Positions 2,936 through 61,616 of a stretch of 64,000 bases of DNA are shown here, in pieces. How positions within the stretch are numbered: position 1 is the stretch's first letter; every line of letters begins with the position of its first letter. The notes under the pieces are model-generated. The model was not told the origin of the DNA. It made no database searches and saw only the letters and a list, made by a program, of their open reading frames with translations. The stretch comes from a virus, in UHGV virus genome UHGV-0091736. One strand, written 5' to 3'. The position numbers and the translations under genes are program-made.

Positions 2936-3187
2936 TTAAACTCCTTTAGGGAATGGGATGAGGTTTTCTACTGCAACACGAAAAGATTTTTCTACATTCT
3001 TATTCTTATAAGAAATGAATTTACCATCAGCACCACGAAGGATTACGTTAGTACGAGCTGTATTGGAAACTAAAGTGATCATAGAGATGGTGTTATTTTT
3101 TGAGTTGTTGTAGTTGTTATCGAAAGTCCACTTATCCAGACGATCATCCATTACATCAATAATAGTTACAGTTTTTACGATAGACAT
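2936..3187 (-). CDS. hypothetical protein, tandem paralog of 2650-2934
   Basis: 83 aa; conserved GKFISY and C-terminal PFPKG. Confidence 0.55.
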   Translation of the reverse strand: MSIVKTVTIIDVMDDRLDKWTFDNNYNNSKNNTISMITLVSNTARTNVILRGADGKFISYKNKNVEKSFRVAVENLIPFPKGV

Positions 3188-24701: not shown

Positions 24702-24917
24702 CTAAAAGTCACTTGATTCTACAAAAGCATCACTAAGGATTTCGTCAATTTCTTTGTTAGTCAAATCTTTCCTGAACCAACAACAAGGTACATCCACCCA
24801 TTGACCAGAGTTGTTTTCTACAGAGCATCTATTGCCTGTCTTACTCTTGCATTTATAGGTTTTACCTTTGTCTAGACGGTAGTGTATCCTGTAAACGACC
24901 GACACAAGTGTTATCAT
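24702..24917 (-). CDS. hypothetical protein
   Basis: 71 aa ORF. Confidence 0.45.
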   Translation of the reverse strand: MITLVSVVYRIHYRLDKGKTYKCKSKTGNRCSVENNSGQWVDVPCCWFRKDLTNKEIDEILSDAFVESSDF

Positions 24918-25150
24918 TACTCGCCTTTCTTAGCACGATCTTTGGCAGTTTTGCCAGTGCGGATGCGATGAGAAACGTTAACCAGAGTGCCACCATCAAC
25001 TACGGTAACGCTCTTGTTTTTAGCCAGATCAAACACAGTTTTCTCCGTGCCGCCCAAGCGAATTTGCTTAGGCTCACTGAAGGTTTGGGTTGATTTGGAT
25101 TGGAACTGGAACGGTTGACGGATTGCATCGATTGCGCTTACTTTAGACAT
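24917..25150 (-). CDS. hypothetical protein
   Basis: 77 aa ORF; SD AAGGAA. Confidence 0.45.
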   Translation of the reverse strand: MSKVSAIDAIRQPFQFQSKSTQTFSEPKQIRLGGTEKTVFDLAKNKSVTVVDGGTLVNVSHRIRTGKTAKDRAKKGE

Positions 25151-25383
25151 AGGGGAAATTCCTTAAAAAGTCATGGCTGCGTAGAGGGAATTCCCTACGC
25201 AAATTGGGCCGCCCACAGGGAGGCGTCATAGTACTAAAAGAAGGAGAGAAGAGGGCTTATTTAGCTACCTTTTCTGTCCATTTACAAACCAGATAATCGA
25301 ACCATCAGGCTGTCGTTGACCTAAGCTTTTCTGGTTAATCATATCGTCATAAGAATATGCTTTACGTCTCATTTGTTTTCCTA

Positions 25384-25596
25384 TTAACAGGCGTAGTTAC
25401 TTAGGTATACATGCCGATCTCTCAGCACCTCACCAAGAAAAGATTTGTAATCTTCTGTTATTCCAGAATAAAACTTCTCTTTAGCTTCTTCTTCAGACAC
25501 TTTCCACAACTTAGAAAGTTGATTGAACAAGACTTCCTCAGAGGAGAATAGTAGGTATGCATTCTGGATGAGTATGTCTTTCTCTTCTTGAGTCAT
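25384..25596 (-). CDS. hypothetical protein
   Basis: 70 aa ORF. Confidence 0.45.
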   Translation of the reverse strand: MTQEEKDILIQNAYLLFSSEEVLFNQLSKLWKVSEEEAKEKFYSGITEDYKSFLGEVLRDRHVYLSNYAC

Positions 25597-25603
25597 ATAC
25601 CAC

Positions 25604-25852
25604 CTACGGAGTTAAGATAATTTCAGCCTTACTAAACTTCTCACCAACAACCATATCACCAGAGATGACACGTAGTTCTCCCGTGCCCAAGTTAACAGCT
25701 CCAGCAGGTTGGAAACCTCTGCTCTTTGCTGTCAGCATGTAAGTCTTTTGAAGATGGCACTCTTGGAGAGTGAACACATCTGACATATTTAGGTCTTTAA
25801 CACGGAGGACTGTTTCCTCTTTGCTCTTAACTTTAACATGAATAGTGCTCAT
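25604..25852 (-). CDS. small paralog-family protein
   Basis: 82 aa; LRVKDLNMSDVF...GAVNLGTGEL fits family pattern L..GDVF...NL.xG. Confidence 0.5.
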   Translation of the reverse strand: MSTIHVKVKSKEETVLRVKDLNMSDVFTLQECHLQKTYMLTAKSRGFQPAGAVNLGTGELRVISGDMVVGEKFSKAEIILTP

Positions 25853-25854
25853 AA

Positions 25855-26100
25855 TTACTCCTGAACCACTGACATACGAATTACTTCAACTGGGGTATCA
25901 CTTTTCATAACACCCAGTACGCCAGTAAGAAGATTAACGGTCGTAATCCAACCCTCTTCTACAGAGATTTTGTTGGATACATTATTAACACGGATGTGGT
26001 ACTGAGGAGTTGCTGTTCCTCTCTGAACTACGAAAGGGTTTCCGGGAATAATTGTAGCCAGTGAAACAGTGTTATCTTTAATCTTTGGGATGATTTTCAT
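25855..26100 (-). CDS. small paralog-family protein
   Basis: 81 aa; IIPGNPFVV...VNLLTGVL. Confidence 0.5.
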   Translation of the reverse strand: MKIIPKIKDNTVSLATIIPGNPFVVQRGTATPQYHIRVNNVSNKISVEEGWITTVNLLTGVLGVMKSDTPVEVIRMSVVQE

Positions 26101-26348
26101 TGCGTATTATCCACCAAAAGTTCTGCTGATACAGGAACAACCTGACAACGACCAAGAGGGGCTGAAACAACCCCATCACCTAGCCGGAGAGTAGGTATCC
26201 GGTTATCTGGGATTTTGATGTTAGGACTTAAGGTAACAATTCCTTTCACATAAAGATCTTCATTGTGTGGGAATTTAAACACAGAACCATTAGCTAGAGA
26301 GCTTAGCTCTACTGCTTCTACTTCCTCTTTCTTATATGTGATTTTCAT
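26097..26348 (-). CDS. small paralog-family protein
   Basis: 83 aa; VELSSLANGSVFKF. Confidence 0.5.
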   Translation of the reverse strand: MKITYKKEEVEAVELSSLANGSVFKFPHNEDLYVKGIVTLSPNIKIPDNRIPTLRLGDGVVSAPLGRCQVVPVSAELLVDNTQ

Positions 26349-26356
26349 ATTGATTC

Positions 26357-26668
26357 CTATTTAAGTTTGAGGCTAATGTTAAGGTGCATACATGCCCTGT
26401 TCTGTACAGCAGCATAACTTCTACCGAGCATGTCAGCCATTCTCTGAATAGACATGAACCCAGCATTACGGATAAGGAACTGGTCTTCTTCTTTAGACCA
26501 CTTAACTCGGATTGAAGCTCTTGATATTCCGAATTTAGTACAAGCTGTGTTAACTGCATTCTCCGTTACATTCATAATCTGAGCAACTTCTTGAACCGAG
26601 TACTCTTTGATTAGTCTCCGAAGATTTTCAATCTGCATCGGAGTCCATATAGTTCTTCGAGCTTTCAT
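26357..26668 (-). CDS. putative DNA-binding protein with two tandem HTH-like repeats
   Basis: 103 aa; WTPMQIENLRRLIKEYSVQEVAQIMNVTENAV and WSKEEDQFLIRNAGFMSIQRMADMLGRSYAAV. Confidence 0.45.
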   Translation of the reverse strand: MKARRTIWTPMQIENLRRLIKEYSVQEVAQIMNVTENAVNTACTKFGISRASIRVKWSKEEDQFLIRNAGFMSIQRMADMLGRSYAAVQNRACMHLNISLKLK

Positions 26669-26983
26669 ACATCCTCCAATTAAACATTTATATAAGACTT
26701 GCTTAGATAAAGATTCAATAAAATAGGGGGAGGGGACGAATCCTCCCTTATCCTATTAGTCAATATTGCATGTAAGATCTAACAATCGGTTGCCTTTGTA
26801 GGAATAAGCGTTATGCTAATCCAGCACTAAACTCCCGCCCCCTTAGTGGGCTGGGTTATTAAAGGGTAACGCCCTTATGGGCTAGTTACATGAATGTTAG
26901 TTTGATAGGAGATCTGAAGTCCTATCTCAAAGGACTCTCGTAAGAATCCTTCACGATAGTCACGCTTTGAGCGTGGTAGCTCC

Positions 26984-27205
26984 TTAGTAAACTAAACCTA
27001 CAGCCTTAGCATCAGGCTGAGGGACCACCTTTGCGCTAGGGCGATAACCATCCACTGAACCATTCCAAAGATTGACACAGGTGATATATCCATCGTTTAT
27101 GATGTCTGTTTTAATCCAGAAGTGTTTATCATGACCAAAAATACTTCCGTTTGGCAGTGTGGACAGCTCAACGGTTTTAAGTGACTGCTTAGAGTCTAGT
27201 TTCAT
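26984..27205 (-). CDS. small paralog-family protein
   Basis: 73 aa; VELSTLPNGSIFGHDKHFWIK...CVNLWNGSV. Confidence 0.5.
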   Translation of the reverse strand: MKLDSKQSLKTVELSTLPNGSIFGHDKHFWIKTDIINDGYITCVNLWNGSVDGYRPSAKVVPQPDAKAVGLVY

Positions 27206-27212
27206 AATAACC

Positions 27213-27518
27213 TCAATCGTCGTAGCATGTATCCCAATACATGTAGTTAACGTACGTTCTCGGTTTGAGTCCGTACATGATAAAGTGAGTCTTCTTAATT
27301 CTTTCCTTCAAGGTATAATAAAGACCATCACTGAAGTTACCAATCTTTACTTGGAAGCGTAAGGAGCGAGCATCCATTCGAAGCATAGAGATTAGCTGTA
27401 CTCTACTGCCCCCAGCCATCTCTTCCAGAAGCTTCTTTGTGTTCCAATAATGAGCTGTCATATTACCACTCCTTACCGGTTGTAATCGTAGAACCACCAC
27501 ACCATAAGGCTGTATCAA
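27213..27518 (-). CDS. hypothetical protein
   Basis: 101 aa ORF. Confidence 0.4.
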   Translation of the reverse strand: MIQPYGVVVLRLQPVRSGNMTAHYWNTKKLLEEMAGGSRVQLISMLRMDARSLRFQVKIGNFSDGLYYTLKERIKKTHFIMYGLKPRTYVNYMYWDTCYDD

Positions 27519-27762
27519 TCACAACATTGTCTGGCGTAGACTTCTCTTCATTGATAGAAGGATTAGCATTAGAACAGGTTGCTCCGTTCCATCGCATATC
27601 AATTTCACCAGAAGGAACCTTCTCACCCTTATGCCAGCGAGATACACAAATACCATCCACTGCTACTGCACACCATCCATCAGGACGGCTCTGTACGCAG
27701 CCTGTAAGGGCCACACAGACAAGGAAGATACAGATTAAGGATATTACACCACCCCAACTCAT
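27463..27762 (-). CDS. small Cys-rich lipoprotein
   Basis: 99 aa; signal peptide MSWGGVISLICIFLVCVALTGC with lipobox LTGC. Confidence 0.5.
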   Translation of the reverse strand: MSWGGVISLICIFLVCVALTGCVQSRPDGWCAVAVDGICVSRWHKGEKVPSGEIDMRWNGATCSNANPSINEEKSTPDNVVIDTALWCGGSTITTGKEW

Positions 27763-27867
27763 AACTACCTCCTATTTGATTTGGCGCACCGTGTAGGACT
27801 CCAACCTACAACCTATTTCTTAGAAGGAAATTGCTCTCTGCAATTGAGCTAACGGCGCTTATTTCAG

Positions 27868-28092
27868 TTAGATCATATCTCGCTTTTTGATACGACCACA
27901 TATTTTACATCGAAGTATATAACGAGTTCCAGTACCTTCCAGACTACCAAAAACTCCATATTTTCTTAAAGGGTTAGATTTGATTATCTCCCATTCGTGG
28001 AGATGGAAGAGATGTTTAAACCACTTGAACACATTAACCTCAAGCACAAGCAGGGAGAGTGATGATTTTATACCGACCTTCAAACTCTCCAA
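27868..28092 (-). CDS. hypothetical protein
   Basis: 74 aa ORF. Confidence 0.4.
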   Translation of the reverse strand: MESLKVGIKSSLSLLVLEVNVFKWFKHLFHLHEWEIIKSNPLRKYGVFGSLEGTGTRYILRCKICGRIKKRDMI

Positions 28093-28339
28093 ACAAACCT
28101 AAGAATGTAGGACTGTAAGTTCCAGTGCAAACAAACTCATCAAACAACTCATTATAGCTAGGCTTAATTTTCCAAGCCCATACATAACCCATCTTGTCAA
28201 TTGCAATGTAACGGGTGTTCAGAGGAACAGTCATCATTACACCATCAACTTCGATCACTTTAGTTATTGGTGCAGCTTGGAAGTTTTTCATCCTACTCTC
28301 CTGACGTTTAGGGTAGCTTGATAAAATTTGACAGGACAA
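28040..28339 (-). CDS. hypothetical protein
   Basis: 99 aa ORF. Confidence 0.4.
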   Translation of the reverse strand: MSCQILSSYPKRQESRMKNFQAAPITKVIEVDGVMMTVPLNTRYIAIDKMGYVWAWKIKPSYNELFDEFVCTGTYSPTFLGLFGEFEGRYKIITLPACA

Positions 28340-28512
28340 CTTCTATCAAATGTAAATCTTGTTTCAGGGTTATTTATACAGATAGCATGTCTGTGCATAA
28401 CCTTCATATATAAAGGAGGTTTTGTATCCCCGTCTATCTCTAGAGAGAATACATCACCATTGCGGAGGCTGCCAAAAGTGTTATCTTTAGGCTCAGAGCG
28501 AACGATAATCAT
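28288..28512 (-). CDS. small paralog-family protein
   Basis: 74 aa; FGSLRNGDVFSLEIDG. Confidence 0.5.
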   Translation of the reverse strand: MIIVRSEPKDNTFGSLRNGDVFSLEIDGDTKPPLYMKVMHRHAICINNPETRFTFDRSCPVKFYQATLNVRRVG

Positions 28513-28685
28513 ACTTTACCTTTAATGAAAATATCATTACCACAGACACAGCATGAACGAACAACAGTAGCGCCACGCTGAACAATACGAACCTCTTCCT
28601 TAATCAGACTAATACGAGCACCGCAGCAAGGGGAGTTGACATAAGAGTAACCAGCTTGCGTATGTTTGATTGTTTGCTTAGACAT
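28509..28685 (-). CDS. small zinc-ribbon protein (below track cutoff)
   Basis: 58 aa MSKQTIKHTQAGYSYVNSPCCGARISL...SCCVCGNDIF; SD GAGGAAG; ATGA overlap with downstream gene. Confidence 0.4.
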   Translation of the reverse strand: MSKQTIKHTQAGYSYVNSPCCGARISLIKEEVRIVQRGATVVRSCCVCGNDIFIKGKV

Positions 28686-28786
28686 TTTAGCTTCCTCTTG
28701 TTAGTTTAGGTAAACCACCCCCCAATCACTGCTACACTCATTCATGTGGAATGCAGATGGGAAAAGCAATTAAAGGTGATTTACCT

Positions 28787-28822
28787 AAAACAACAAAGGC
28801 CACCCGATTGGGCAGCCTTTTA
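28787..28822 (-). terminator. rho-independent terminator
   Basis: minus-strand GGCTGCCCaatcGGGTGGCC followed by TTTGTTGTTTT; near-copy of the 3223-3250 hairpin. Confidence 0.5.
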
Positions 28823-28823
28823 T

Positions 28824-29075
28824 TTATCGATTTACTTCACGAAGTAAGATAACCTGTAAGTATGTATCATCTGCATTTGACAGAAATGCAAAGTACAACT
28901 CTTTTGCTGTATCTATTGAGCAATTAAGACATTTGGATATCTGAAGAAGCTGGATACTTCGTTCAGTGTTATCCAGAATAGCAATGCGAATAATTTCTCG
29001 CATACCGATTACATGGGTATTTTTAACCTTCATAGGTCCAATTGCCTTGCTTGTTACGGATGGCTGACATTGCAT
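28824..29075 (-). CDS. hypothetical protein (start uncertain)
   Basis: 83 aa track ORF; alternative internal start MKVKN at 29033 and an overlapping 46-aa ORF 29023-29163. Confidence 0.4.
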   Translation of the reverse strand: MQCQPSVTSKAIGPMKVKNTHVIGMREIIRIAILDNTERSIQLLQISKCLNCSIDTAKELYFAFLSNADDTYLQVILLREVNR

Positions 29076-29521
29076 GAATCCAGAAGCCTTCCAGTTTCAG
29101 AGCACCGTTAGCTACTGCATCCATACGTTCAGGGCGGTTCATACGTTTGGTTGATACTTTCATACCTATCTCTCTTTGTTAGTGGAGGCATTATTGCCAG
29201 TTGATATAAGGGATAGCCCTAGTCAGGAGACTAATTCTGACCGCGTACTCATTGCCGACCTTCTCTGCCTAAGAGTTCAGGTTCTAGAGCTATCTCTTAT
29301 TCCAACTGGTGAAGACTTCCTACCCCTAGGAAGCCTCCTGAATCCCAAACCAATACGTACCCCTACATATCGGAAAGTCTTTCGAAAATTAACAGGTTTT
29401 AGTCTAACACCGGATGTTCGAGCAAGCTCTCCCTAGCGGTGTGGCATATGCCTGAATTAATAAGTTAATGAGGAACACCCTCACATAGCCCTCTGATAAA
29501 CACAAGGGCTATAAGTCGATG

Positions 29522-29740
29522 TTACTTTTGAGTCAAATACAAATCAGGACGAGGCATAACAGTGGTTGATGGATTGAAGTTACCAACATAACCGGTGCTT
29601 AGATTAGCAGCCCTACGTAGTCCATTAGAGAGGTCATCATCCAGCATCAGCCAGAATTTTTGATCATAAGAGAAAACATCACCACTCTTAACATCTTCCA
29701 CAGTTGCATATTTAGGAGTATCAACTACTTTAATTTCCAT
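29522..29740 (-). CDS. small paralog-family protein
   Basis: 72 aa; VEDVKSGDVFSYDQKFWLML...ANLSTGYV. Confidence 0.5.
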   Translation of the reverse strand: MEIKVVDTPKYATVEDVKSGDVFSYDQKFWLMLDDDLSNGLRRAANLSTGYVGNFNPSTTVMPRPDLYLTQK

Positions 29741-29998
29741 TTACTTACCTTTATTAGTAATAACAACGTCATGAAGAAGAACAACCTTGCTCTTCGAGCT
29801 GAGCTTAATGACTTGTTTGTTTGTTAGACTGAGAACGACACAACCACCATCAGAAGGTTTGGTCTCCTCGATCTGCGATTTAAACAGTTGAACAACCATG
29901 TAGAAATCTGCTCGTGTTTCCCTGATTTGGAATACATCTCCAAGTTCAAGATCACCAACACACAAAGATGGTTCGTTTACCTTCAAATCAATCTTCAT
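29741..29998 (-). CDS. small paralog-family protein
   Basis: 85 aa; VGDLELGDVFQIRETRADFYMVV. Confidence 0.5.
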   Translation of the reverse strand: MKIDLKVNEPSLCVGDLELGDVFQIRETRADFYMVVQLFKSQIEETKPSDGGCVVLSLTNKQVIKLSSKSKVVLLHDVVITNKGK

Positions 29999-30224
29999 CT
30001 TTAACCTCTATGTTAGTTATGTGGAGATCACTGCGTACTTGGCAAACTTCATCACGATCAAAAGGGATAACCTTTCCAGTGACCACATTAACACAATTTA
30101 CACCATTTTCTGCGTATCGTGTGTCGGTTCTAATGTAAAGAGTGTCTTTACGCTCAAACAGAACCCCCGGCTTCATGTTATTTAATCGAATCATCGTACG
30201 ATCAGATTTAATATTAACTTTCAC
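29988..30224 (-). CDS. small paralog-family protein
   Basis: 78 aa; NNMKPGVLFERKDTLYIR...CVNVVTGKV. Confidence 0.5.
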   Translation of the reverse strand: MKVNIKSDRTMIRLNNMKPGVLFERKDTLYIRTDTRYAENGVNCVNVVTGKVIPFDRDEVCQVRSDLHITNIEVKDED

Positions 30225-30226
30225 TG

Positions 30227-30487
30227 TTAATCCACCTTATCAGTAAGTCGAGCATTGTTAATCTTCTTAACAATCACACTATGTCGATCTGCTGAGATCA
30301 CACCGTTTGAGAGGTTCATGTAGTTTCTACAACCATCTGATTTGTTAAATCTACAGGAAGCCATGTAAAAATCATCAGAGTTCACAAGGAATTGGAACAC
30401 ATCACCTGAATCGAGATCCCCAAGAGTTAGCTTCTTTGGTGGATGGTTCATGTCAATTATCACTGTTAATCTCCTGCTGCTTAGCAA
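30227..30487 (-). CDS. small paralog-family protein
   Basis: 86 aa; LGDLDSGDVFQFLVNSDDFYMA...MNLSNGVI. Confidence 0.5.
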   Translation of the reverse strand: MLSSRRLTVIIDMNHPPKKLTLGDLDSGDVFQFLVNSDDFYMASCRFNKSDGCRNYMNLSNGVISADRHSVIVKKINNARLTDKVD

Positions 30488-30749
30488 TAGCTACTCGCAA
30501 GTCTTCATTAGCACGAGCAAGGCGCAACACTTCATGATTGAGATTCTGAAGACGCTTGTTTCTGTCCTCTACTTGCATAATAAGATCGTTGAGTGTTACT
30601 TTAACTTTCTCATTATACATCTCATCCACTCGGACTAGGGATTTATACATTCTCTCCCAGCTTGCTGCTTTGTTTCTGAGAACAATAAATCCTATAACGC
30701 TGATAGTTAAACAGCTTACAAAAAGGAATTTATATACTTCTAAAGTCAT
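30453..30749 (-). CDS. membrane-anchored coiled-coil protein (i-spanin-like architecture)
   Basis: 98 aa; N-terminal TM FLFVSCLTISVIGFIVL then heptad-rich helical region. Confidence 0.45.
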   Translation of the reverse strand: MTLEVYKFLFVSCLTISVIGFIVLRNKAASWERMYKSLVRVDEMYNEKVKVTLNDLIMQVEDRNKRLQNLNHEVLRLARANEDLRVAIAKQQEINSDN

Positions 30750-30949
30750 ATCATTTTACCCTTTATCAGAGATTAAAAGTAATATTATTTAAGTAAGTTA
30801 TATTTAGTAAACTTATTTTCTAAGAAATTTTCAAAGGGTCTATATACAGAGCATTACCCATAGTCCCAGAATACTACCATCTTTTTCAATAAATTTACTA
30901 AGTGGTTGGTTTATAAAGGAATTTAGTTTGTCAAATCTGGCACTAGTGA

Positions 30950-31339
30950 TTATTCCCTAGAGCTATTATCGAACACTAAATCACCACAATACATAGGATT
31001 GGCATACCATTTTGGCACCCCTTCGCTCTTACTCTGAAAGTAAGTCCCACTGTACAGCGGAACATAATTCTTCTTAAGGGCACGTTTAGCTAGCCTCTCG
31101 CTTTCTCCAATGGCTTGCTTAGTCATCGGATTTTTATCACGAATCAGCTTTACATAACGTTTATAAGGTTTCTCCTGTTTTAATAGTACCGGAATCCACT
31201 CAAACTGGTTCTTTTGTCTTATCACCTGTTCAGCGGTCAGTTTTCGTTGAGCCATTCTATTTATCACGGTATCCGCAACTAAAGCCTTACATGCGGTTGG
31301 CTGATTCCCTGCCTCATAATAAATAGTCAATGTCAACAT
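30950..31339 (-). CDS. SleB-like cell wall hydrolase
   Basis: 129 aa; YYEAGNQPTACKALVADTVINR resembles the cell-wall hydrolase (Hydrolase_2) motif. Confidence 0.55.
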   Translation of the reverse strand: MLTLTIYYEAGNQPTACKALVADTVINRMAQRKLTAEQVIRQKNQFEWIPVLLKQEKPYKRYVKLIRDKNPMTKQAIGESERLAKRALKKNYVPLYSGTYFQSKSEGVPKWYANPMYCGDLVFDNSSRE

Positions 31340-32744: not shown

Positions 32745-32846
32745 CTTTGATTAGATTCTTTGATGAGCACACTGAATCAATGCACTGATAAAAGAAAAGG
32801 CGCTACCCGTTAAGATAGCGCCTTATATTTATTCAAATTGTCTTAC

Positions 32847-34570: not shown

Positions 34571-35056
34571 GTTAAAGAGCGGTAAATCTATCAGCGTGTT
34601 TACTCACGCTATGCAACTGTTAGCCGTTGTCTCGCTTTTCACTTAAGCGGTGATTTGCTTAGTGAGTGCTCATTATGAATCATGTTGTTTTAGCTGTCAA
34701 CCACTTTTTTAATCTTTTTCGTCGTTCCCATTATCGGGAGGATATACCAATCAGCTTTATTTGATTGGAGATTAAGCGGTGATGCTTAACTTATGATTCA
34801 TATTGTTAAAGAGCGGTTACTACATTCACAGCTTAACACATCGTGTTAGCTTGTCAACTCTTTCTATCGTCTTCTTTTTCTCTCTCTCCCTCTGTCTCGC
34901 GTGAATCTATGCGAAAGGGCAAGACGATCAGTTTTTAAAGAGCGGGGATTTTTTAAGTCATCGCTGACTGAGTGCTCATTATGAATCAGGCTTTTTCCGG
35001 TGTCAATACTCTTTTTAAGAATATTTTCACTTTTTAGCCTGATTTTTAAGGAGCGG
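34571..35056. repeat. dispersed direct repeats inside the 1.8-kb non-coding region
   Basis: TTAAAGAGCGG at 34571, 34805, 34935, 35046 (variant TTAAGGAGCGG); GAGTGCTCATTATGAATCA at 34664 and 34970; TTAAGCGGTGAT at about 34643 and 34773. Confidence 0.6.
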
Positions 35057-35495
35057 TTGAAGTCTCTCTCTTCACGGGGTATTGCGTAGTTCCCAACGTT
35101 CTCTGCCACCGCGCTATAGGTAGTGGCTTAGTATCCGACAATCAGACCTTCTTCACTCGGTGAAGCCCGGCCCCTCAATTTACTGTTAGTGAGGCGGTTA
35201 CAGTGTACCTGCTACCGATTCCGTGGTGGCGTCTTACTGCTTGTTGCTTACTGCTTACTACGGGATTCATATTACTATACAGGAAAACCCTGTCAATACC
35301 CTTTTTTCAAATTATTTTTCATCTCACTGTTTTCTAAAGGAATTTATTTTATTGTCAGTAGGACACCGGAAGGAATCAGGAGGTAAAAGAGCGGGAGCGC
35401 GTGATACATCACAGGAAACGGCTTGTAAAGCAGTAATAAGCGTCCTAAAACGCATCACAACGAGCTAAAAGGGAGTAAGGCATACAATCACCTTA

Positions 35496-35526
35496 GAAAA
35501 TAGAAAAGCCTCTTAATGAGGCTTAC
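35496..35526 (-). terminator. rho-independent terminator
   Basis: minus-strand AAGCCTCattaaGAGGCTT followed by TTCTATTTTCT. Confidence 0.55.
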
Positions 35527-35600
35527 AGGAAGGATTTAAAGCATCAGATAGATTATGACCATAGGCATGACCACGGCACAATACAGGAGAAAGATTAAGC

Positions 35601-36053
35601 CTATGGATTTACACATTGACCGTTACCGGATTCTACTTCGTTCATGGACTCATCAAAGAGTGTCAACGATGAGCGCATCAGGTGATCGACCGTGATTTGT
35701 TTACCAGTGGTTTCATTTACTAATAGAATAGTTTTACTATCTGATTGCACATGTTCGAAATCATTTACATGTAAAATAATAACTTTAGGTGACTTTTTAC
35801 CAGTGTCATAATTCTCAATCAAATAGGTGCACTGTAAACCGTCAACCGTAGCAGGGGAAAACGTTGCAGCCCTTACGCTACCCAAAGATGATAGCAGGAC
35901 ACCTAACAGGAGAACAACCAGAAAGAAGCCTACAACCATTTTAACTAAGAATTTAATAAACCACATAGCAATCAACCTTTTAGTTAAAGAACGTAAGAGT
36001 AAAGCATATCGGCGACGAATAGCGCCACTGTAGCAACGAATAAACACCGCCAA
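35601..36053 (-). CDS. early membrane-anchored protein
   Basis: 150 aa; hydrophobic segment FLVKMVVGFFLVVLLLGVLLSSL; start may be internal Met. Confidence 0.5.
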   Translation of the reverse strand: MAVFIRCYSGAIRRRYALLLRSLTKRLIAMWFIKFLVKMVVGFFLVVLLLGVLLSSLGSVRAATFSPATVDGLQCTYLIENYDTGKKSPKVIILHVNDFEHVQSDSKTILLVNETTGKQITVDHLMRSSLTLFDESMNEVESGNGQCVNP

Positions 36054-36059
36054 AAATAA

Positions 36060-36323
36060 TCATTCTTCATCATTGCCTTTACCTTCAAAGAGTGATACTC
36101 TAAGCAATTTAATTTCTTCCAGTGACAGAAGAATCCCACGTTGCGCCAGATAATGACCAGCTTTAACATCATCCATAATTAGAGCGACGGCAGGAAATTC
36201 TACCGCATTAATATTATCGCCACCAACAAACAAGATCAGACACTTGTCAGAATTGTCAGTATATGAGAAATCAATATCCCCATAGTTATGAGTAGGGATA
36301 GTGTAACTATGTTCTTTAGCCAT
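36060..36323 (-). CDS. hypothetical early protein
   Basis: 87 aa ORF. Confidence 0.5.
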   Translation of the reverse strand: MAKEHSYTIPTHNYGDIDFSYTDNSDKCLILFVGGDNINAVEFPAVALIMDDVKAGHYLAQRGILLSLEEIKLLRVSLFEGKGNDEE

Positions 36324-36333
36324 GTATTAATCC

Positions 36334-37206
36334 TTACTTATTAGCCTTAATGCAGTTGGCTAGATTAACGTGAACAGTATAAACAGCATTATCAGCGTTA
36401 TTATAAACGGTAGTGGCGATCATCGACTCCTTAACCGGACCATAACTCACTAGATTGGTTACAGCTTTAACGTCTTCATAACGTTGTACAGTACCAAATG
36501 TCACCATATCCGCATCATTATCAGTGCGCTTAAGCACCAAATCATTGTTAGGCTGATTATCTAGTGTTTTAGACTGAAAGAGAACGCCTTCATTTGTTAC
36601 GTTGCTAAACTTCATTTTTAAGACAATAGTATTGCCGTCACTATCCGCACCGTTGCAAATCATCCAACCTTTATTGATGGAACTAGAGAAGACACTAGCC
36701 GCATCAGTTGCAGGAGCAGGACTAGCAACAGCCTTATCAGAAAGAGATGTGACCAGTGCACTAACACCGATCGCTGCAACCAGTGCATAACTTGCCAGAT
36801 TAACAGACTTCATAATCTTACTTGCAACAGTAGGCTTGATTGGCTGTTTCTTGTTTTTCTTGTTCCATGCTTCAACCATGACAGACAAGCGGGATAATTC
36901 AGCTTTCACATCACGGCATGACTCAGGCCAATCTTTCTGATTCCAGCTATCTAAATTTGCTTGAATGTAGCAATTAATAGCGTCCTGCATATCGGTAAAA
37001 CCGTTCTCTTTGAACGTGCTTTCATCTTCACACTGTAAAGCGTTCGCAGTAGAGTTAATGATCAAGCAAGCCAGCATTACAGAGTTTTTGAATCCTTTAC
37101 GTGCACTTTCGTTTTCCATCCACGCATCAGGACTACCAACGGTTAAGCCTAAAGATGAAAGGTTTTCGTTTGCTTTGTTCAAGTGGTTAATTGCTACTTT
37201 AGACAT
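36334..37206 (-). CDS. early protein with central transmembrane helix
   Basis: 290 aa; TM VNLASYALVAAIGVSALVTSL; first gene after strong sigma70-like promoter; SD AAGGAA. Confidence 0.55.
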   Translation of the reverse strand: MSKVAINHLNKANENLSSLGLTVGSPDAWMENESARKGFKNSVMLACLIINSTANALQCEDESTFKENGFTDMQDAINCYIQANLDSWNQKDWPESCRDVKAELSRLSVMVEAWNKKNKKQPIKPTVASKIMKSVNLASYALVAAIGVSALVTSLSDKAVASPAPATDAASVFSSSINKGWMICNGADSDGNTIVLKMKFSNVTNEGVLFQSKTLDNQPNNDLVLKRTDNDADMVTFGTVQRYEDVKAVTNLVSYGPVKESMIATTVYNNADNAVYTVHVNLANCIKANK

Positions 37207-37250
37207 TTGATATTCCTTATGGTTGATGAAAACTACAAACTACAATCGCA

Positions 37251-37278
37251 ACTATATAATAAAGGAAAAGGCTGTCAA
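37251..37278 (-). promoter_or_regulatory. sigma70-type early promoter (leftward)
   Basis: minus-strand TTGACA, 16-nt spacer, TATAGT; about 45 nt upstream of ATG at 37206. Confidence 0.6.
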
Positions 37279-40699: not shown

Positions 40700-41479
40700 C
40701 ATAGCTAGAAGTGTTGGTCCTCTATAAACTCGGTGAATTGCTGGAACCTCTGACCCTTAAGTGGAAGACAATCAGCAGCGAAGATAATGTATAACTTACT
40801 CATGATACATTATAACGTTCAACGACTATCGAAAGCATAGCCCGTATGGGTGAAGAAGCAAGTAGAGTAGATACCAAGTGGTATCGAAGTGCCGAGCAAA
40901 ACTAAGGAGTGATACATTGGGTAGACCTAACAAATCATTAGATTCAACCAAAACATGTTCAGTGTGCTCTGTAACAAAAGACATAGAATCTTTTGCAATA
41001 AGAACAAGAGCAATATCCACTGGAGAGGTTAGAATCTACCGTAAGTCTCAATGCAAAGAGTGCATGGCTGAGATGAGAAGGGATTGGGGTAAGAATAATC
41101 CAGATAAGATTCGTGAGAATAATAATTCTCCAAATAAGAGAGCTTGCGATAATGCAAGACGGGCTGGATTAGAAACTGCTTCTATTATCAGAGATGATGA
41201 GTATAATAAATTTGTTATGGAAGAAATGTATGAACTTCGAAATCTTAGAACAAAGGAAACTGGATTTCAATGGCATGTAGATCACATAATCCCTTTAAAA
41301 GGTAATAACGTATGTGGTTTTCATGTCTGGTATAACTTGCAGGTAGTTCCTGCTGTTTTCAACCTATCTAAGAGTAATAGTTTTGATGATATAGTCTGCT
41401 CTGCATGGAAACATGCAGCTGGAGAAATCCGGGATGAGATTAACGATCTTGTCTGAACAACACGCCATATGAGTCTATG
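40691..41479 (+). mobile_element. putative group I-type intron splitting the large terminase gene; carries HNH ORF
   Basis: ATPase motifs resume at AIFAQCV...TATPENG in 41477 ORF; no SD before exon 2; insert has AAACTCGGTGAA block shared with the polymerase and helicase insertions. Confidence 0.6.
40878..41456 (+). CDS. HNH homing endonuclease (intron-encoded; start may be TTG at 40917)
   Basis: Zn-finger CSVCS...CKEC plus HNH core [38 protein letters not shown]. Confidence 0.7.
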
Positions 41480-42403
41480 GCTATATTCGCACAGTGCGTC
41501 ACACGTACACTCACAACTAAAGGTCTAGTTACAATTACAGCTACACCAGAGAACGGTTTAACTGAACTGGTAGATAAATTTATGAAAGGTGAAGGGGATG
41601 AGAACACAGGTTCTCTATATTTCCAGAATGCTTCTTGGTGGGATGCTCATGCAGACCTAGGTGGACATATCACTGACCAAGATATAAAAGATATGACTGA
41701 AGGTATTCCAGCGTGGCAGTTAGAGATGCGTTCGAAAGGTATGCCATTGTTAGGAAGTGGTTTGATATATGATGTATCGGATGACACAATTAAATGTGAA
41801 CCATTCGAAATTCCTGATACGTGGAAACGTGTCTGTGCAATTGATATTGGTATTGATCACCCAACTGCTGCTGTTTGGACAGCTTACGATGCAAACACGG
41901 ATACTGTCTATGTTTACGACTCATATAAAGAAGGTGGCTTTACTCCAGTGTATCATGCTCCAGCTATTAATGGTCGTGGTCAGTGGATTCCTGTCATCCT
42001 ACCGCATGATGCGGACAATATTGAGAAAGGTAGTGGATCATCTGTTGCTCAATTCTATAAGAATGCAGGAGTTAATGTACAGAGTGAGACCTTCTACAAC
42101 AAAATTGGAATGGATGGTAAAAAGAACTTCTTTGTAGAACCCGGAATCACAGATATCCGAGAAAGAATGATGAGTGGACGCTTTAAAATCTTTAACACAG
42201 CTGCTAACGCTAAGCTATTCGAAGAGAAAGCTAGATATCACCGCAAGGTTGGTAAGATTATTAAAGAACATGATGACTTAATGGATGCAATGCGCTATTC
42301 AGCGTGCTCTGTTACACATCGTGGTCGCTCTAAGCATGACGTTAGCTACGGAAGTGCTTCTCTGTATGAGGCAAACGTAAGCAGATGGAATCAGAGTTAC
42401 TAA
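41477..42403 (+). CDS. terminase large subunit, 3' exon (ATPase motif III and nuclease domain)
   Basis: TATPENG coupling motif; CAIDIGIDHPTAAVWTAYD...VYVYDSY nuclease-type acidic motifs. Confidence 0.8.
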   Translation: MAIFAQCVTRTLTTKGLVTITATPENGLTELVDKFMKGEGDENTGSLYFQNASWWDAHADLGGHITDQDIKDMTEGIPAWQLEMRSKGMPLLGSGLIYDVSDDTIKCEPFEIPDTWKRVCAIDIGIDHPTAAVWTAYDANTDTVYVYDSYKEGGFTPVYHAPAINGRGQWIPVILPHDADNIEKGSGSSVAQFYKNAGVNVQSETFYNKIGMDGKKNFFVEPGITDIRERMMSGRFKIFNTAANAKLFEEKARYHRKVGKIIKEHDDLMDAMRYSACSVTHRGRSKHDVSYGSASLYEANVSRWNQSY

Positions 42404-59582: not shown

Positions 59583-60635
59583 ATGTCTTTATTTGGAAAA
59601 TCAGCTTCTAGCAAAACCACAGTGGCCCCTTCCTCTCAGGTTGATGCCCTGCTGAAGCAGATTGTTGCTAATGCTCAGAATATGCAGAACAACGATCCGG
59701 GATTCATCTCCCAACAGCTGGCTGGGTTCAATGGCAACCAACAGGGTGCTCTGAATAACTTAGCGGCTTCTACAACTCAGAAGCAATTAGCTGATATGTA
59801 CACTCCTCGTACACAGCAAGGGTTGGACCAATTAAACTCTCTTGCACAACAGTATCAGAATATTGTCAATGGTGGTGGTCTAACTGCTGATGGTGTTAAT
59901 AACTTCAGTAAAGGATTGAATAGCTCAGCTCTTGCTCAAGCGACTAGTAAGGCAGCTTCCAATGTATCTCTCGGAAATGGTTCTGATTCAGGCTCTCTCC
60001 GTAGAGCTGCTGCTCAAGGTGCTGCTTTGAACAGTGCTAATACAAACTTAGCTCGTACTATCAGTGGCAAGAATATGGGAATCAGTGCTCTTCAACAAGA
60101 CCAAAACTTCCAGAGGGGCTTACTTGGTGCTCAGTCAGGGTTGGCTGGACAGAACCTCAACCTAGGTGCTCAAGGTGTTCAGGCAACTCAACAAGCTATC
60201 CAGAATCAACTCATGGCTGGTAATCTACAACAGCAACAAGCTCAAGCTCAAGCTGATATTAATTGGCAGAACGCTATTGGCTCTCAGCAGTATGGGTGGA
60301 ATCAGCTTAACAACCAACTTAATGTATTAAATAGTGTAAGCCCAATGGCTGGGTACACGATTAAGAATGCTGCTCCGGGGGTTAATACTGGACAACAGCT
60401 CCTAGGTGCTGGTATCACTGGATTAGGTATTGCAGGGCGTATGGGTGCTTTCTCTCCTAATCAACAGACTCAGAATGCTTGGAGTTCCTATAACAACTCA
60501 GGTGGGCAATCTGGAATGGCTGGACCTATGATTGGAGGTTCTAATCTTTCTCAACAGAGAGGTCAGTCTAACTGGTTATCCACAGCAGGTAGTAATATCT
60601 TAGGTGGTGTCTTAGGGGCATTTGGAGCAAACTAA
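59583..60635 (+). CDS. Q/N/G-rich internal virion protein, tandem paralog A
   Basis: 350 aa; MSLFGK start, QQ/NN-rich, C-terminal Gly-zipper-like hydrophobic tail. Confidence 0.5.
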   Translation: MSLFGKSASSKTTVAPSSQVDALLKQIVANAQNMQNNDPGFISQQLAGFNGNQQGALNNLAASTTQKQLADMYTPRTQQGLDQLNSLAQQYQNIVNGGGLTADGVNNFSKGLNSSALAQATSKAASNVSLGNGSDSGSLRRAAAQGAALNSANTNLARTISGKNMGISALQQDQNFQRGLLGAQSGLAGQNLNLGAQGVQATQQAIQNQLMAGNLQQQQAQAQADINWQNAIGSQQYGWNQLNNQLNVLNSVSPMAGYTIKNAAPGVNTGQQLLGAGITGLGIAGRMGAFSPNQQTQNAWSSYNNSGGQSGMAGPMIGGSNLSQQRGQSNWLSTAGSNILGGVLGAFGAN

Positions 60636-60647
60636 AGGAGAATATCT

Positions 60648-61616
60648 ATGTCACTTTTTGGTGGAGGCGGAAGTAAAACTACTTCCCAAATGATTCGCCC
60701 TGAATACATTCAACAGTATATTGACCAGCTTAACCAACAGATTGGTAATACTAGTTCAGGGGATTATGTTTATCGAGATAATGTAGGGTTTAATAACAAC
60801 CAGACAGAGGCACTTAACAACTTAGCACAATCTGGTGCTCTAGGAACTCTCTCACAGCAATACATGGATGCAGCAGGTCAAGGCTTGGGTTATCTAGATA
60901 ATGCCTATAAAGGCTATCAGAGCCTATCTGGACAAGGTGGGATTACTGGAGAACAGATTGGTGCTCTCGCTGGTCAACTGTATGATGATGACGCTGTGCA
61001 AGCAGCCATTACAGCTAATAATGAACAAGTTCAACAGAACTTGGCACGTAATGCTCTTCCTCAGTTGGCTCAGCAGTATGCTGGTCAGCAAGGTTCAGGT
61101 GCTCGTATGGCTAAGTCTTTTGCCCAAGGCGATGCTCTGAATCAGATGCAAGGTCAAGCAACAGATATTACCAACAGTGCCTATAACTCAGCTATTAGTC
61201 AAGCTGAAAGCATTCTCTCTGGTAATAGACAGAATCAGGCAGCTGCTCTTTCTGGTCTTTCTAATATTGGTTCTAACCTTTCTAACCTAGGTCAGCAGGG
61301 TGCTAATTTGTCTCAACAGCAAATAATGAATCAATGGAATGCAGGGTTGCAGCAACAACAGCAACAACAGAATGAATATGACAATGCCTACCAGAATGCT
61401 CAGAACGCAGCTAATTGGGGATGGCAAGATATCAATAACCAACTCGGTGCAGCAGGTGTGCTTAACGGCGCTCTCGGACAAACCACAACTACTAAAACAT
61501 CTGGTGGCAAAGGTGGTTTCCTTGGTGGAGCTATGAGTGGTGCAGCAGCTGGCTCCTCCTTTGGGCCTTGGGGTGCATTAGCTGGGGGTGTAATCGGTGG
61601 GTTGGCTAGTACTTAA
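60648..61616 (+). CDS. Q/N/G-rich internal virion protein, tandem paralog B
   Basis: 322 aa; MSLFGGGGSKTT start; C-terminal GFLGGAMSGAAAGSSFGPWGALAGGVIGGLAST. Confidence 0.5.
   Translation: MSLFGGGGSKTTSQMIRPEYIQQYIDQLNQQIGNTSSGDYVYRDNVGFNNNQTEALNNLAQSGALGTLSQQYMDAAGQGLGYLDNAYKGYQSLSGQGGITGEQIGALAGQLYDDDAVQAAITANNEQVQQNLARNALPQLAQQYAGQQGSGARMAKSFAQGDALNQMQGQATDITNSAYNSAISQAESILSGNRQNQAAALSGLSNIGSNLSNLGQQGANLSQQQIMNQWNAGLQQQQQQQNEYDNAYQNAQNAANWGWQDINNQLGAAGVLNGALGQTTTTKTSGGKGGFLGGAMSGAAAGSSFGPWGALAGGVIGGLAST

Follow-up and report, generated by a model that had tools for sequence, protein, structure and literature searches.

Nine divergent small paralogues, predicted to share an SH3-like barrel fold, form an old and mosaic gene array in the early region of a phiEco32-like coliphage

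Multigene families of small accessory proteins and anti-defence binders are small, early, arranged in tandem, variable in copy number and mosaic in their alleles. The virus genome UHGV-0091736, analysed here as one strand of 64,000 nucleotides (the window), carries between positions 25604 and 30487 an array of nine genes that is like such families in its small size, early class, tandem layout, variable copy number and mosaic alleles, but differs from them in that its divergence appears ancient and under purifying selection and is not demonstrably driven by an arms race. The closest known barrels to the predicted fold of the nine proteins are SH3-like domains (L2 C-terminal domain, EF-P/eIF5A domain I, KOW, Tudor, DtxR C-terminal SH3 and FeoA). 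In contrast to these, the family proteins stand alone at 70–85 aa, carry a motif set of their own (GDVF, YMK and VNL..G), have no functional residues in common with them and belong to no Pfam SH3-like family. All nine match PHROGs (phrog_6570, 7832, 7431, 8365, 9955, 16423, 10911 and 12612; E-values down to 1e-42), which divide the family into at least eight groups without a function or fold label and in which its unity, fold and expansion are unrecorded. N4 gp21 and phiEco32 gp95–98, 104, 109 and 113–115 belong to the same family by hidden Markov model (HMM) and by structural match in BFVD and are annotated as hypothetical proteins; a single copy is present in the first 30 kb of N4, compared with seven to 10 in Kuravirus. 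VapX of the VapXD system is a further point of comparison, but the nine-gene family has no adjacent VapD-like toxin gene, and no sequence similarity to VapX was detected. Expanded families of small proteins are already familiar from the early regions of phages, as is the fold, but the family itself, how far it extends, the arrays that recur in it and the fusions appear to be undescribed.

All nine open reading frames (ORFs) listed in an earlier note on this DNA were located, and all lie on the minus strand, arranged as three tandem genes (25604–26348), two single genes (26984–27205 and 28288–28512) and four tandem genes (29522–30463); only the start of the ninth had to be revised, so that the four-gene block holds with a slightly shorter extent. 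Pairwise identity among the nine proteins is just 13–36%, and their nine-way alignment retains a single invariant Phe, so statistical tests of relationship were required. Each member in turn was left out of an HMM built from the other eight, and each time it ranked first in a set of 5,385 sequences that comprised 385 window ORFs and 5,000 shuffled decoys. E-values ranged from 6e-11 to 6e-3, and the next match was always clearly separated; the lowest scores were those of 28288 (14.7 bits), 25855 (17.6 bits) and 25604 (19.7 bits). A second HMM, built from 124 distant homologues after removal of close Kuravirus orthologues and searched against 1,014 stop-to-stop segments of the window, matched exactly these nine (E 1e-19 to 1e-7; next best 0.18) and no tenth member elsewhere, a test that is supportive and not fully independent because the 124 homologues had originally been recruited with the nine-member profile. 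Two candidate extra members at 15046–15231 and 41440–41607 (E about 0.1–1) were lost with a broader profile. BLASTP inside the window connects only five members, the remaining ones being detectable by profiles, and PHROG profiles were matched at E 1e-20 to 1e-42 with cross-matching among the eight phrogs, all of “unknown function”. The alignment bears out the shared N-terminal and VNL/NL patterns that had been noticed before, namely L..L..G[DSN][VI]F, an aromatic residue in Y/W-M/I-K and then VNL..G, the last of which is degenerate in 28288, 29741 and 26097. The profile searches thus show that the nine genes are true, very divergent paralogues, and the view of them as a genuinely expanded small-protein family stands.

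For comparative analysis we used the early regions of eight further Kuravirus phages (phiEco32, Bas91, KBNP1711, NJ01, SU10, CHD5UKE1, 1-6af and YF01). The ratio of non-synonymous to synonymous divergence from the window (dN/dS, Nei–Gojobori) is 0.04–0.38 for every member, which shows that the nine genes are coding, and 0.04–0.40 for neighbouring non-family genes; by this measure the members are under purifying selection. The median between-genome amino acid identity of family genes is 75%, versus 96% for neighbouring early genes (per-gene Mann–Whitney p=0.027), and their median dS is 0.59 versus 0.22, synonymous divergence rising together with non-synonymous divergence. Identities between phages are bimodal, and allele combinations vary from phage to phage: the gene at 29741 falls into two allele classes (88–93% identity in four phages, 52–55% in four others), and the slot of 26097 is occupied in SU10, Bas91 and CHD5UKE1 by a family member of only 22–24% identity. 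Two members, 26984 and 28288, are highly conserved. The bimodality points to discrete deep alleles that are swapped through recombination. At 50% identity or more, the nine genomes combined hold 13–14 paralogue types, and HMM counts give nine copies in the window, phiEco32 and SU10, 10 in NJ01, eight in Bas91 and seven in YF01; phiEco32 is without the ninth gene and has the partial extra member gp98 instead. This variation in copy number and allele content among close phages shows, at the level of gene content, accessory behaviour.

Most of the window paralogues score higher against proteins of unrelated metagenomic phages than against one another, the only mutual best paralogues being 29522/26984 and 29741/30227. 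Apart from one 25-nt junction at the starts of the eighth and ninth genes, the array holds no DNA-level repeats, so that recent duplication is unsupported. The better scores against unrelated phages led us to reject a recent lineage-specific burst, and the description of the array as rapidly diverging in the earlier note cannot be upheld in view of these scores, the raised dS and the bimodal identities. The same three observations indicate that the array is old and mosaic; as judged from these comparisons, it is a cassette-like assembly kept up by recombination and not a recent fast burst.

Individual genes of the array are tightly packed: an SD (Shine–Dalgarno)-like motif is present at all nine, and neighbours abut or overlap by 4–11 nt. 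Member 1 (25604–25852, 82 aa, orthologue of phiEco32 gp95) was recovered at rank 1 with a leave-one-out E-value of 1.8e-4 and a distant-homologue HMM E-value of 7.8e-12; it matches phrog_12612 at E 2e-37 and has a dN/dS of 0.20. Member 2 (25855–26100, 81 aa, gp96 orthologue) likewise took rank 1 (leave-one-out E 7.7e-4; distant-homologue HMM E 5e-13; dN/dS 0.20); its stop lies 2 nt away from the start of member 1, a 2-nt gap separates its start from the stop of the downstream neighbour frame of member 3, and it overlaps member 3 by 4 nt (ATGA). Member 3 (26097–26348, 83 aa, gp97 orthologue) reached E 5e-7 and 3e-13 in the two tests, respectively. Member 4 (26984–27205, 73 aa, gp104 orthologue; E 6e-11 and 1e-19, dN/dS 0.12) is the closest of the nine to the family consensus, shows 82–99% identity across Kuravirus and is the top window match for 42 of 132 distant homologues. 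The weakest sequence signal is that of member 5 (28288–28512, 74 aa, gp109 orthologue), which is either 95–100% conserved in other genomes or absent. In the downstream-to-upstream order of the four-gene block follow member 6 (29522–29740, 72 aa, gp113 orthologue; E 5e-7 and 1.4e-16, dN/dS 0.31), member 7 (29741–29998, 85 aa, gp114 orthologue; E 6e-8 and 3.6e-13, dN/dS 0.20) and member 8 (29988–30224, 78 aa, gp115 orthologue; E 8e-7 and 2.5e-16, dN/dS 0.26), which begins with GTG preceded by AGGTGG. Member 9 (30227–30463, 78 aa; E 1.2e-8 and 3.7e-16, dN/dS 0.29) has no orthologue in phiEco32 and is 58% identical to SU10_0114. Its start is most likely GTG 30463 (78 aa) rather than TTG 30487 (86 aa): GTG 30463 has AGGAG 8 nt upstream, the string GATTAACA precedes both this codon and the GTG start of 29988–30224, the junction GATTAACAGTG at the start is identical to that at the start of member 8, and 78 aa is also the length of the database orthologue P0001 and fits the 237-bp SU10_0114. 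The AGGAG, the junction common to both genes and the orthologue lengths together favour the revised start.

Judged by its nucleotide matches, the window is a Kuravirus, that is, a phiEco32-like coliphage. Megablast with positions 25000–31000 matched 109 phage records, nearly all of them from phiEco32/SU10-type phages of Escherichia (Kuravirus, Gordonclarkvirinae), with SU10 (91% identity) and phiEco32 (89%) as the best matches; the 76.6-kb IMG/VR genome UViG_3300045988_017452 is 100% identical to the window across the 10.2-kb locus that was fetched (L010). The array region 25604–30487 is the counterpart of phiEco32 gp95 to gp116. According to GC skew and ORF orientation, transcription proceeds leftward from about 37 kb, and a cluster of four near-consensus sigma70-type promoters (34672–37278, minus strand, 10–11 of 12 matches each), with individual positions at 37278, 35296, 35006 and 34700, lies upstream of the array. 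Its layout agrees with the “one plus three” early promoters described for SU10 and phiEco32. The orthologues of the nine genes are found within phiEco32 gp95–115 and SU10 coding sequences 96–114, and published work, as relayed by secondary citations, places the orthologous genes of both phages in the early class. By orthology, the nine genes therefore belong to the early, host RNA polymerase-dependent class, and this and the upstream promoters agree with the early-region location given in the earlier note. Strong terminator-like hairpins lie within the early unit on the minus strand (28795–28820, 32797–32824 and 26728–26747), and terminator-like sites are about twofold commoner than in shuffled sequence (23 vs 10.4), an excess which suggests that the early operon is punctuated or dependent on antitermination.

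Beyond Kuravirus, an exhaustive HMMER search among 1.84 billion cluster representatives returned 782 at E≤1e-3, whereas a word-indexed search had yielded Kuravirus orthologues only. Nearly all of the 782 are stand-alone proteins of 68–85 aa with the consensus MKI...L..L..GDVF...YMKT...VNL..G...V.P..A.L. The top match, P0121 (3,353 aa, 20 matching stretches), was rejected together with P0122 and P0144 as a false positive; these are repeat proteins that sum many 2–5-bit partial matches to GD.F. Real fusions comprise seven proteins of two domains, one of three and one of about six. The HMM recovers N4 gp21 (E 2e-17), four proteins of phage 7-11 (gp110, gp112, gp131 and gp133) and the phiEco32 members (E 4e-21 to 3e-7); structural matches in BFVD include N4 gp21, PaP3 ORF65, EP335, Cronus and Seu621. 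One further BFVD entry, A0A7L4XW47 (Escherichia phage vB_EcoP_EcoN5, 77 aa), is a family member annotated as “Endolysin”, a label that is probably wrong because its size and fold fit the small SH3-like family. Some members carry Cys at or before the GDVF motif (“CGSCF” in N4 gp21, L008 9155–9379; “CGEV” in gp110 and gp112 of 7-11, L009), and N4 gp21 gives a sub-threshold zf-UBP match (E 1e-3), which makes metal binding possible in a subset.

Nine metagenomic contexts hold one copy each, and most of them resemble temperate siphophages (integrase, repressor, RecT, SPP1-type portal; GC 32–52%). There the gene has other small accessory ORFs around it, in a stretch that usually separates the replication genes from the late activator and terminase, often with YopX or DUF551 among the neighbours and, in three or four of the nine, an orphan DNA methyltransferase nearby. 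In an SPbeta-like contig (L020, YorF/YorH context), three genes form a separate tandem array together with a two-domain fusion and a weak fifth. One homologue, on a Logan SRR33512697 contig (L021, 1404–5460), has PemK-toxin and GmrSD_N-like genes upstream of it and genes for an acetyltransferase and a DNA methylase close by, a setting that resembles a defence or counter-defence island more than a standard phage module. A search for related loci gave five, one of which (L014) is a 32-residue partial match only, with no HMM-detectable member, and tblastn against cultured phages with a distant member, the family consensus and an L020 member proved too insensitive for mapping the distribution. The profile matches show that the family occurs widely among tailed phages, with both Gram-negative and Gram-positive hosts, and that it expanded in tandem independently in Kuravirus (seven to 10 copies), phage 7-11 (four) and the SPbeta-like contig (five to six domains), being otherwise usually single-copy.

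No Pfam, NCBIfam, PADLOC or PDB sequence match was found for any member tested. Among Pfam SH3-like families (FeoA, KOW, Tudor, SH3_x, YorP), none exceeded the gathering threshold for the nine window proteins, 10 distant homologues, the L020 array, N4 gp21 or 7-11 gp112, the best being SH3_9 at E 0.21 (30-bit cutoff); the 124-homologue profile gave a chance match alone (E 0.95) against 177,635 PDB sequences; and PADLOC, which covers defence and not anti-defence proteins, returned nothing at E≤1. The AlphaFold2 model of 26984–27205 is a five-strand barrel (pLDDT 84, pTM 0.71; strands 22–25, 28–37, 40–45, 51–54 and 59–62), and that of 28288–28512, the weakest member, is all-beta (pLDDT 85.9). 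Both models conform to an SH3-like barrel, a compact fold of five to six antiparallel strands in about 60–75 residues, and the superposition of the predicted models on solved SH3-like domains is significant. The fold, which the earlier note had been unable to assign, is thus predicted to be an SH3-like small beta-barrel. The nine members are soluble proteins of 72–85 aa without metal-binding or catalytic motif. Going by where they fall on the secondary structure of the models, and not by a computed mapping of core and surface residues, the conserved motifs (L..L..GDVF, Y-M-K, VNL..G and V.P) appear to form the barrel core and tight turns. Loop length between the conserved motifs varies in the alignments; two hairpin loops between motifs and the C-terminal tail vary in both length and sequence, from which we infer that each paralogue shows a different surface on one scaffold. 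The fusions of two, three and about six domains show that several domains can act together, but do not demonstrate a ring of the Sm/Hfq-like kind.

What the array does may be read in several ways. We tentatively favour, with a little less than even confidence, a repertoire of diversified protein binders for host takeover or anti-defence, a reading that draws on early expression by orthology, on the location in accessory regions in other phages and on variable copy number. A common barrel scaffold would carry diversified hairpin surfaces, one per paralogue, through which different partner proteins would be bound stoichiometrically early in infection; candidate partners would be host factors, host defence or abortive-infection effectors and proteins of competitor phages, and the repertoire would have been built through old tandem duplication plus horizontal exchange. 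Several points weigh against this proposal. Our literature search found no partner, phenotype or expression data for any member and no paper treating these genes as a family (phiEco32 gp104, N4 gp21 and the Kuravirus paralogues included), and mass spectrometry-based proteomics of SU10 detected no family member. The spread over phages of very different hosts could mean a single target, universal or internal to the phage. Because both AlphaFold models were computed from family alignments, the agreement between them does not independently prove the fold of the weakest member, and the nearest neighbours in structure are domains associated with RNA or the ribosome (L2, EF-P, KOW) and not inhibitors. 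Finally, window members range in pI from 4.8 to 9.3, three of the nine being basic (pI 8.9–9.3). A wider version of the proposal, which we regard as rather unlikely, would make the family a phage-wide binder scaffold whose two hairpins have been repeatedly retargeted, with arrays and fusions inhibiting host immunity or machinery in a multivalent or combinatorial manner and the nine cassettes of Kuravirus serving as an exchangeable repertoire that helps to set host range.

The main alternative is that the proteins are small barrels of the KOW, Tudor, Sm or L2 type which, instead of neutralising diverse targets, bind nucleic acid or the machinery of transcription or translation (RNA polymerase, ribosome, RNA) and modulate host or phage gene expression. 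In its favour are the kind of domains found as structural neighbours and the spread across hosts. We consider it doubtful, however, as profile similarity to such domains is lacking, individual copies are dispensable and the proteins are acidic: the family median pI is 5.3, most members are acidic to neutral and only 9% exceed pI 8, which argues against generic nucleic-acid binding. As a sub-case of anti-defence, the proteins might instead be VapX-like antitoxin neutralisers, each sequestering a host or prophage toxin or an abortive-infection effector. The homologue near PemK and GmrSD-like genes fits this idea, but Pfam scans of 15 neighbouring ORFs (which gave a helix-turn-helix (HTH) regulator, a phage lipoprotein and a cell-wall hydrolase) place a toxin gene next to no window member, nor is one found in most other contexts, and VapX ranked no higher than many unrelated SH3-like domains, so that we judge it improbable. 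Were the array evolutionary filler, that is, duplicated ORFans with little or no function, copy numbers of seven to 10, slots lost without obvious consequence and the absence of all members from the SU10 mass spectra would be expected; yet the low dN/dS of every member, the strong conservation of two of them, the persistence of the motifs in 782 sequence clusters and very distant phage lineages, and SD-like motifs at every gene in a tightly packed operon make filler very improbable. That the similarity is fortuitous or the ORFs non-coding, the two outcomes that the earlier note had named as fatal to its claim, finds some ground in the low pairwise identities and the several pairs invisible to BLASTP, but the chance of it is negligible: the leave-one-out and distant-homologue HMMs rule out motifs without statistical support, the dN/dS of 0.04–0.38 across all members excludes non-coding ORFs, the PHROG profiles cross-match, and the strongest and weakest members have the same predicted fold.

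Several neighbouring loci deserve mention. A tRNA-Arg(TCT) gene (27782–27858, minus) lies amid the array region; in Bas91 and YF01 it is adjoined by a homing or HNH endonuclease gene, an insertion that is absent from the window. Between the array blocks, 26357–26668 (minus) encodes a protein of 103 aa with two HTH-like segments, a Sigma70_r4_2 match (E 1.6e-7) and a Myb/HTH_11-like second half, named “transcriptional regulator, D5-like” in RefSeq; it is 97–99% identical in seven phages and 63% in phiEco32, another deep allele. The 98-aa orthologue of phiEco32 gp116 (30453–30749, minus) is called “DNA helicase” in RefSeq and several GenBank records, a label that looks wrong because there is no helicase Pfam match and the N-terminus is hydrophobic and membrane-like. 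On the other side of the array, the content of 24917–25600 is unlike phiEco32, the membrane-protein gene phi32_92 being missing, and an ORF at 25384–25596 (70 aa) has a weak HMG-box-like match (E 0.008) and an orthologue in one of the eight compared phages (1-6af). The window also holds two other pairs of adjacent paralogues: 2650–2934 and 2936–3187 (minus; 53% identity over 47 aa, E 7e-14), unrelated to the nine-gene family, and 59583–60635 and 60648–61616 (plus) in the late region, of about 320–350 aa each (32% identity over 275 aa, E 6e-11).

About one-tenth of the Kuravirus early-region genes thus belong to one family that has apparently never been described as such. Once it is recognised, at least eight PHROGs labelled “unknown” and dozens of proteins annotated as “hypothetical protein” become a single testable unit with a predicted fold, variable loops, natural fusions and presence/absence variants in cultivable Escherichia coli phages (phiEco32, SU10 and the BASEL phages Bas90 and Bas91). 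Should its members prove to inhibit host factors or defence systems, the array would offer a ready-made panel for target discovery; otherwise it would count as an ordinary phage ORFan expansion.

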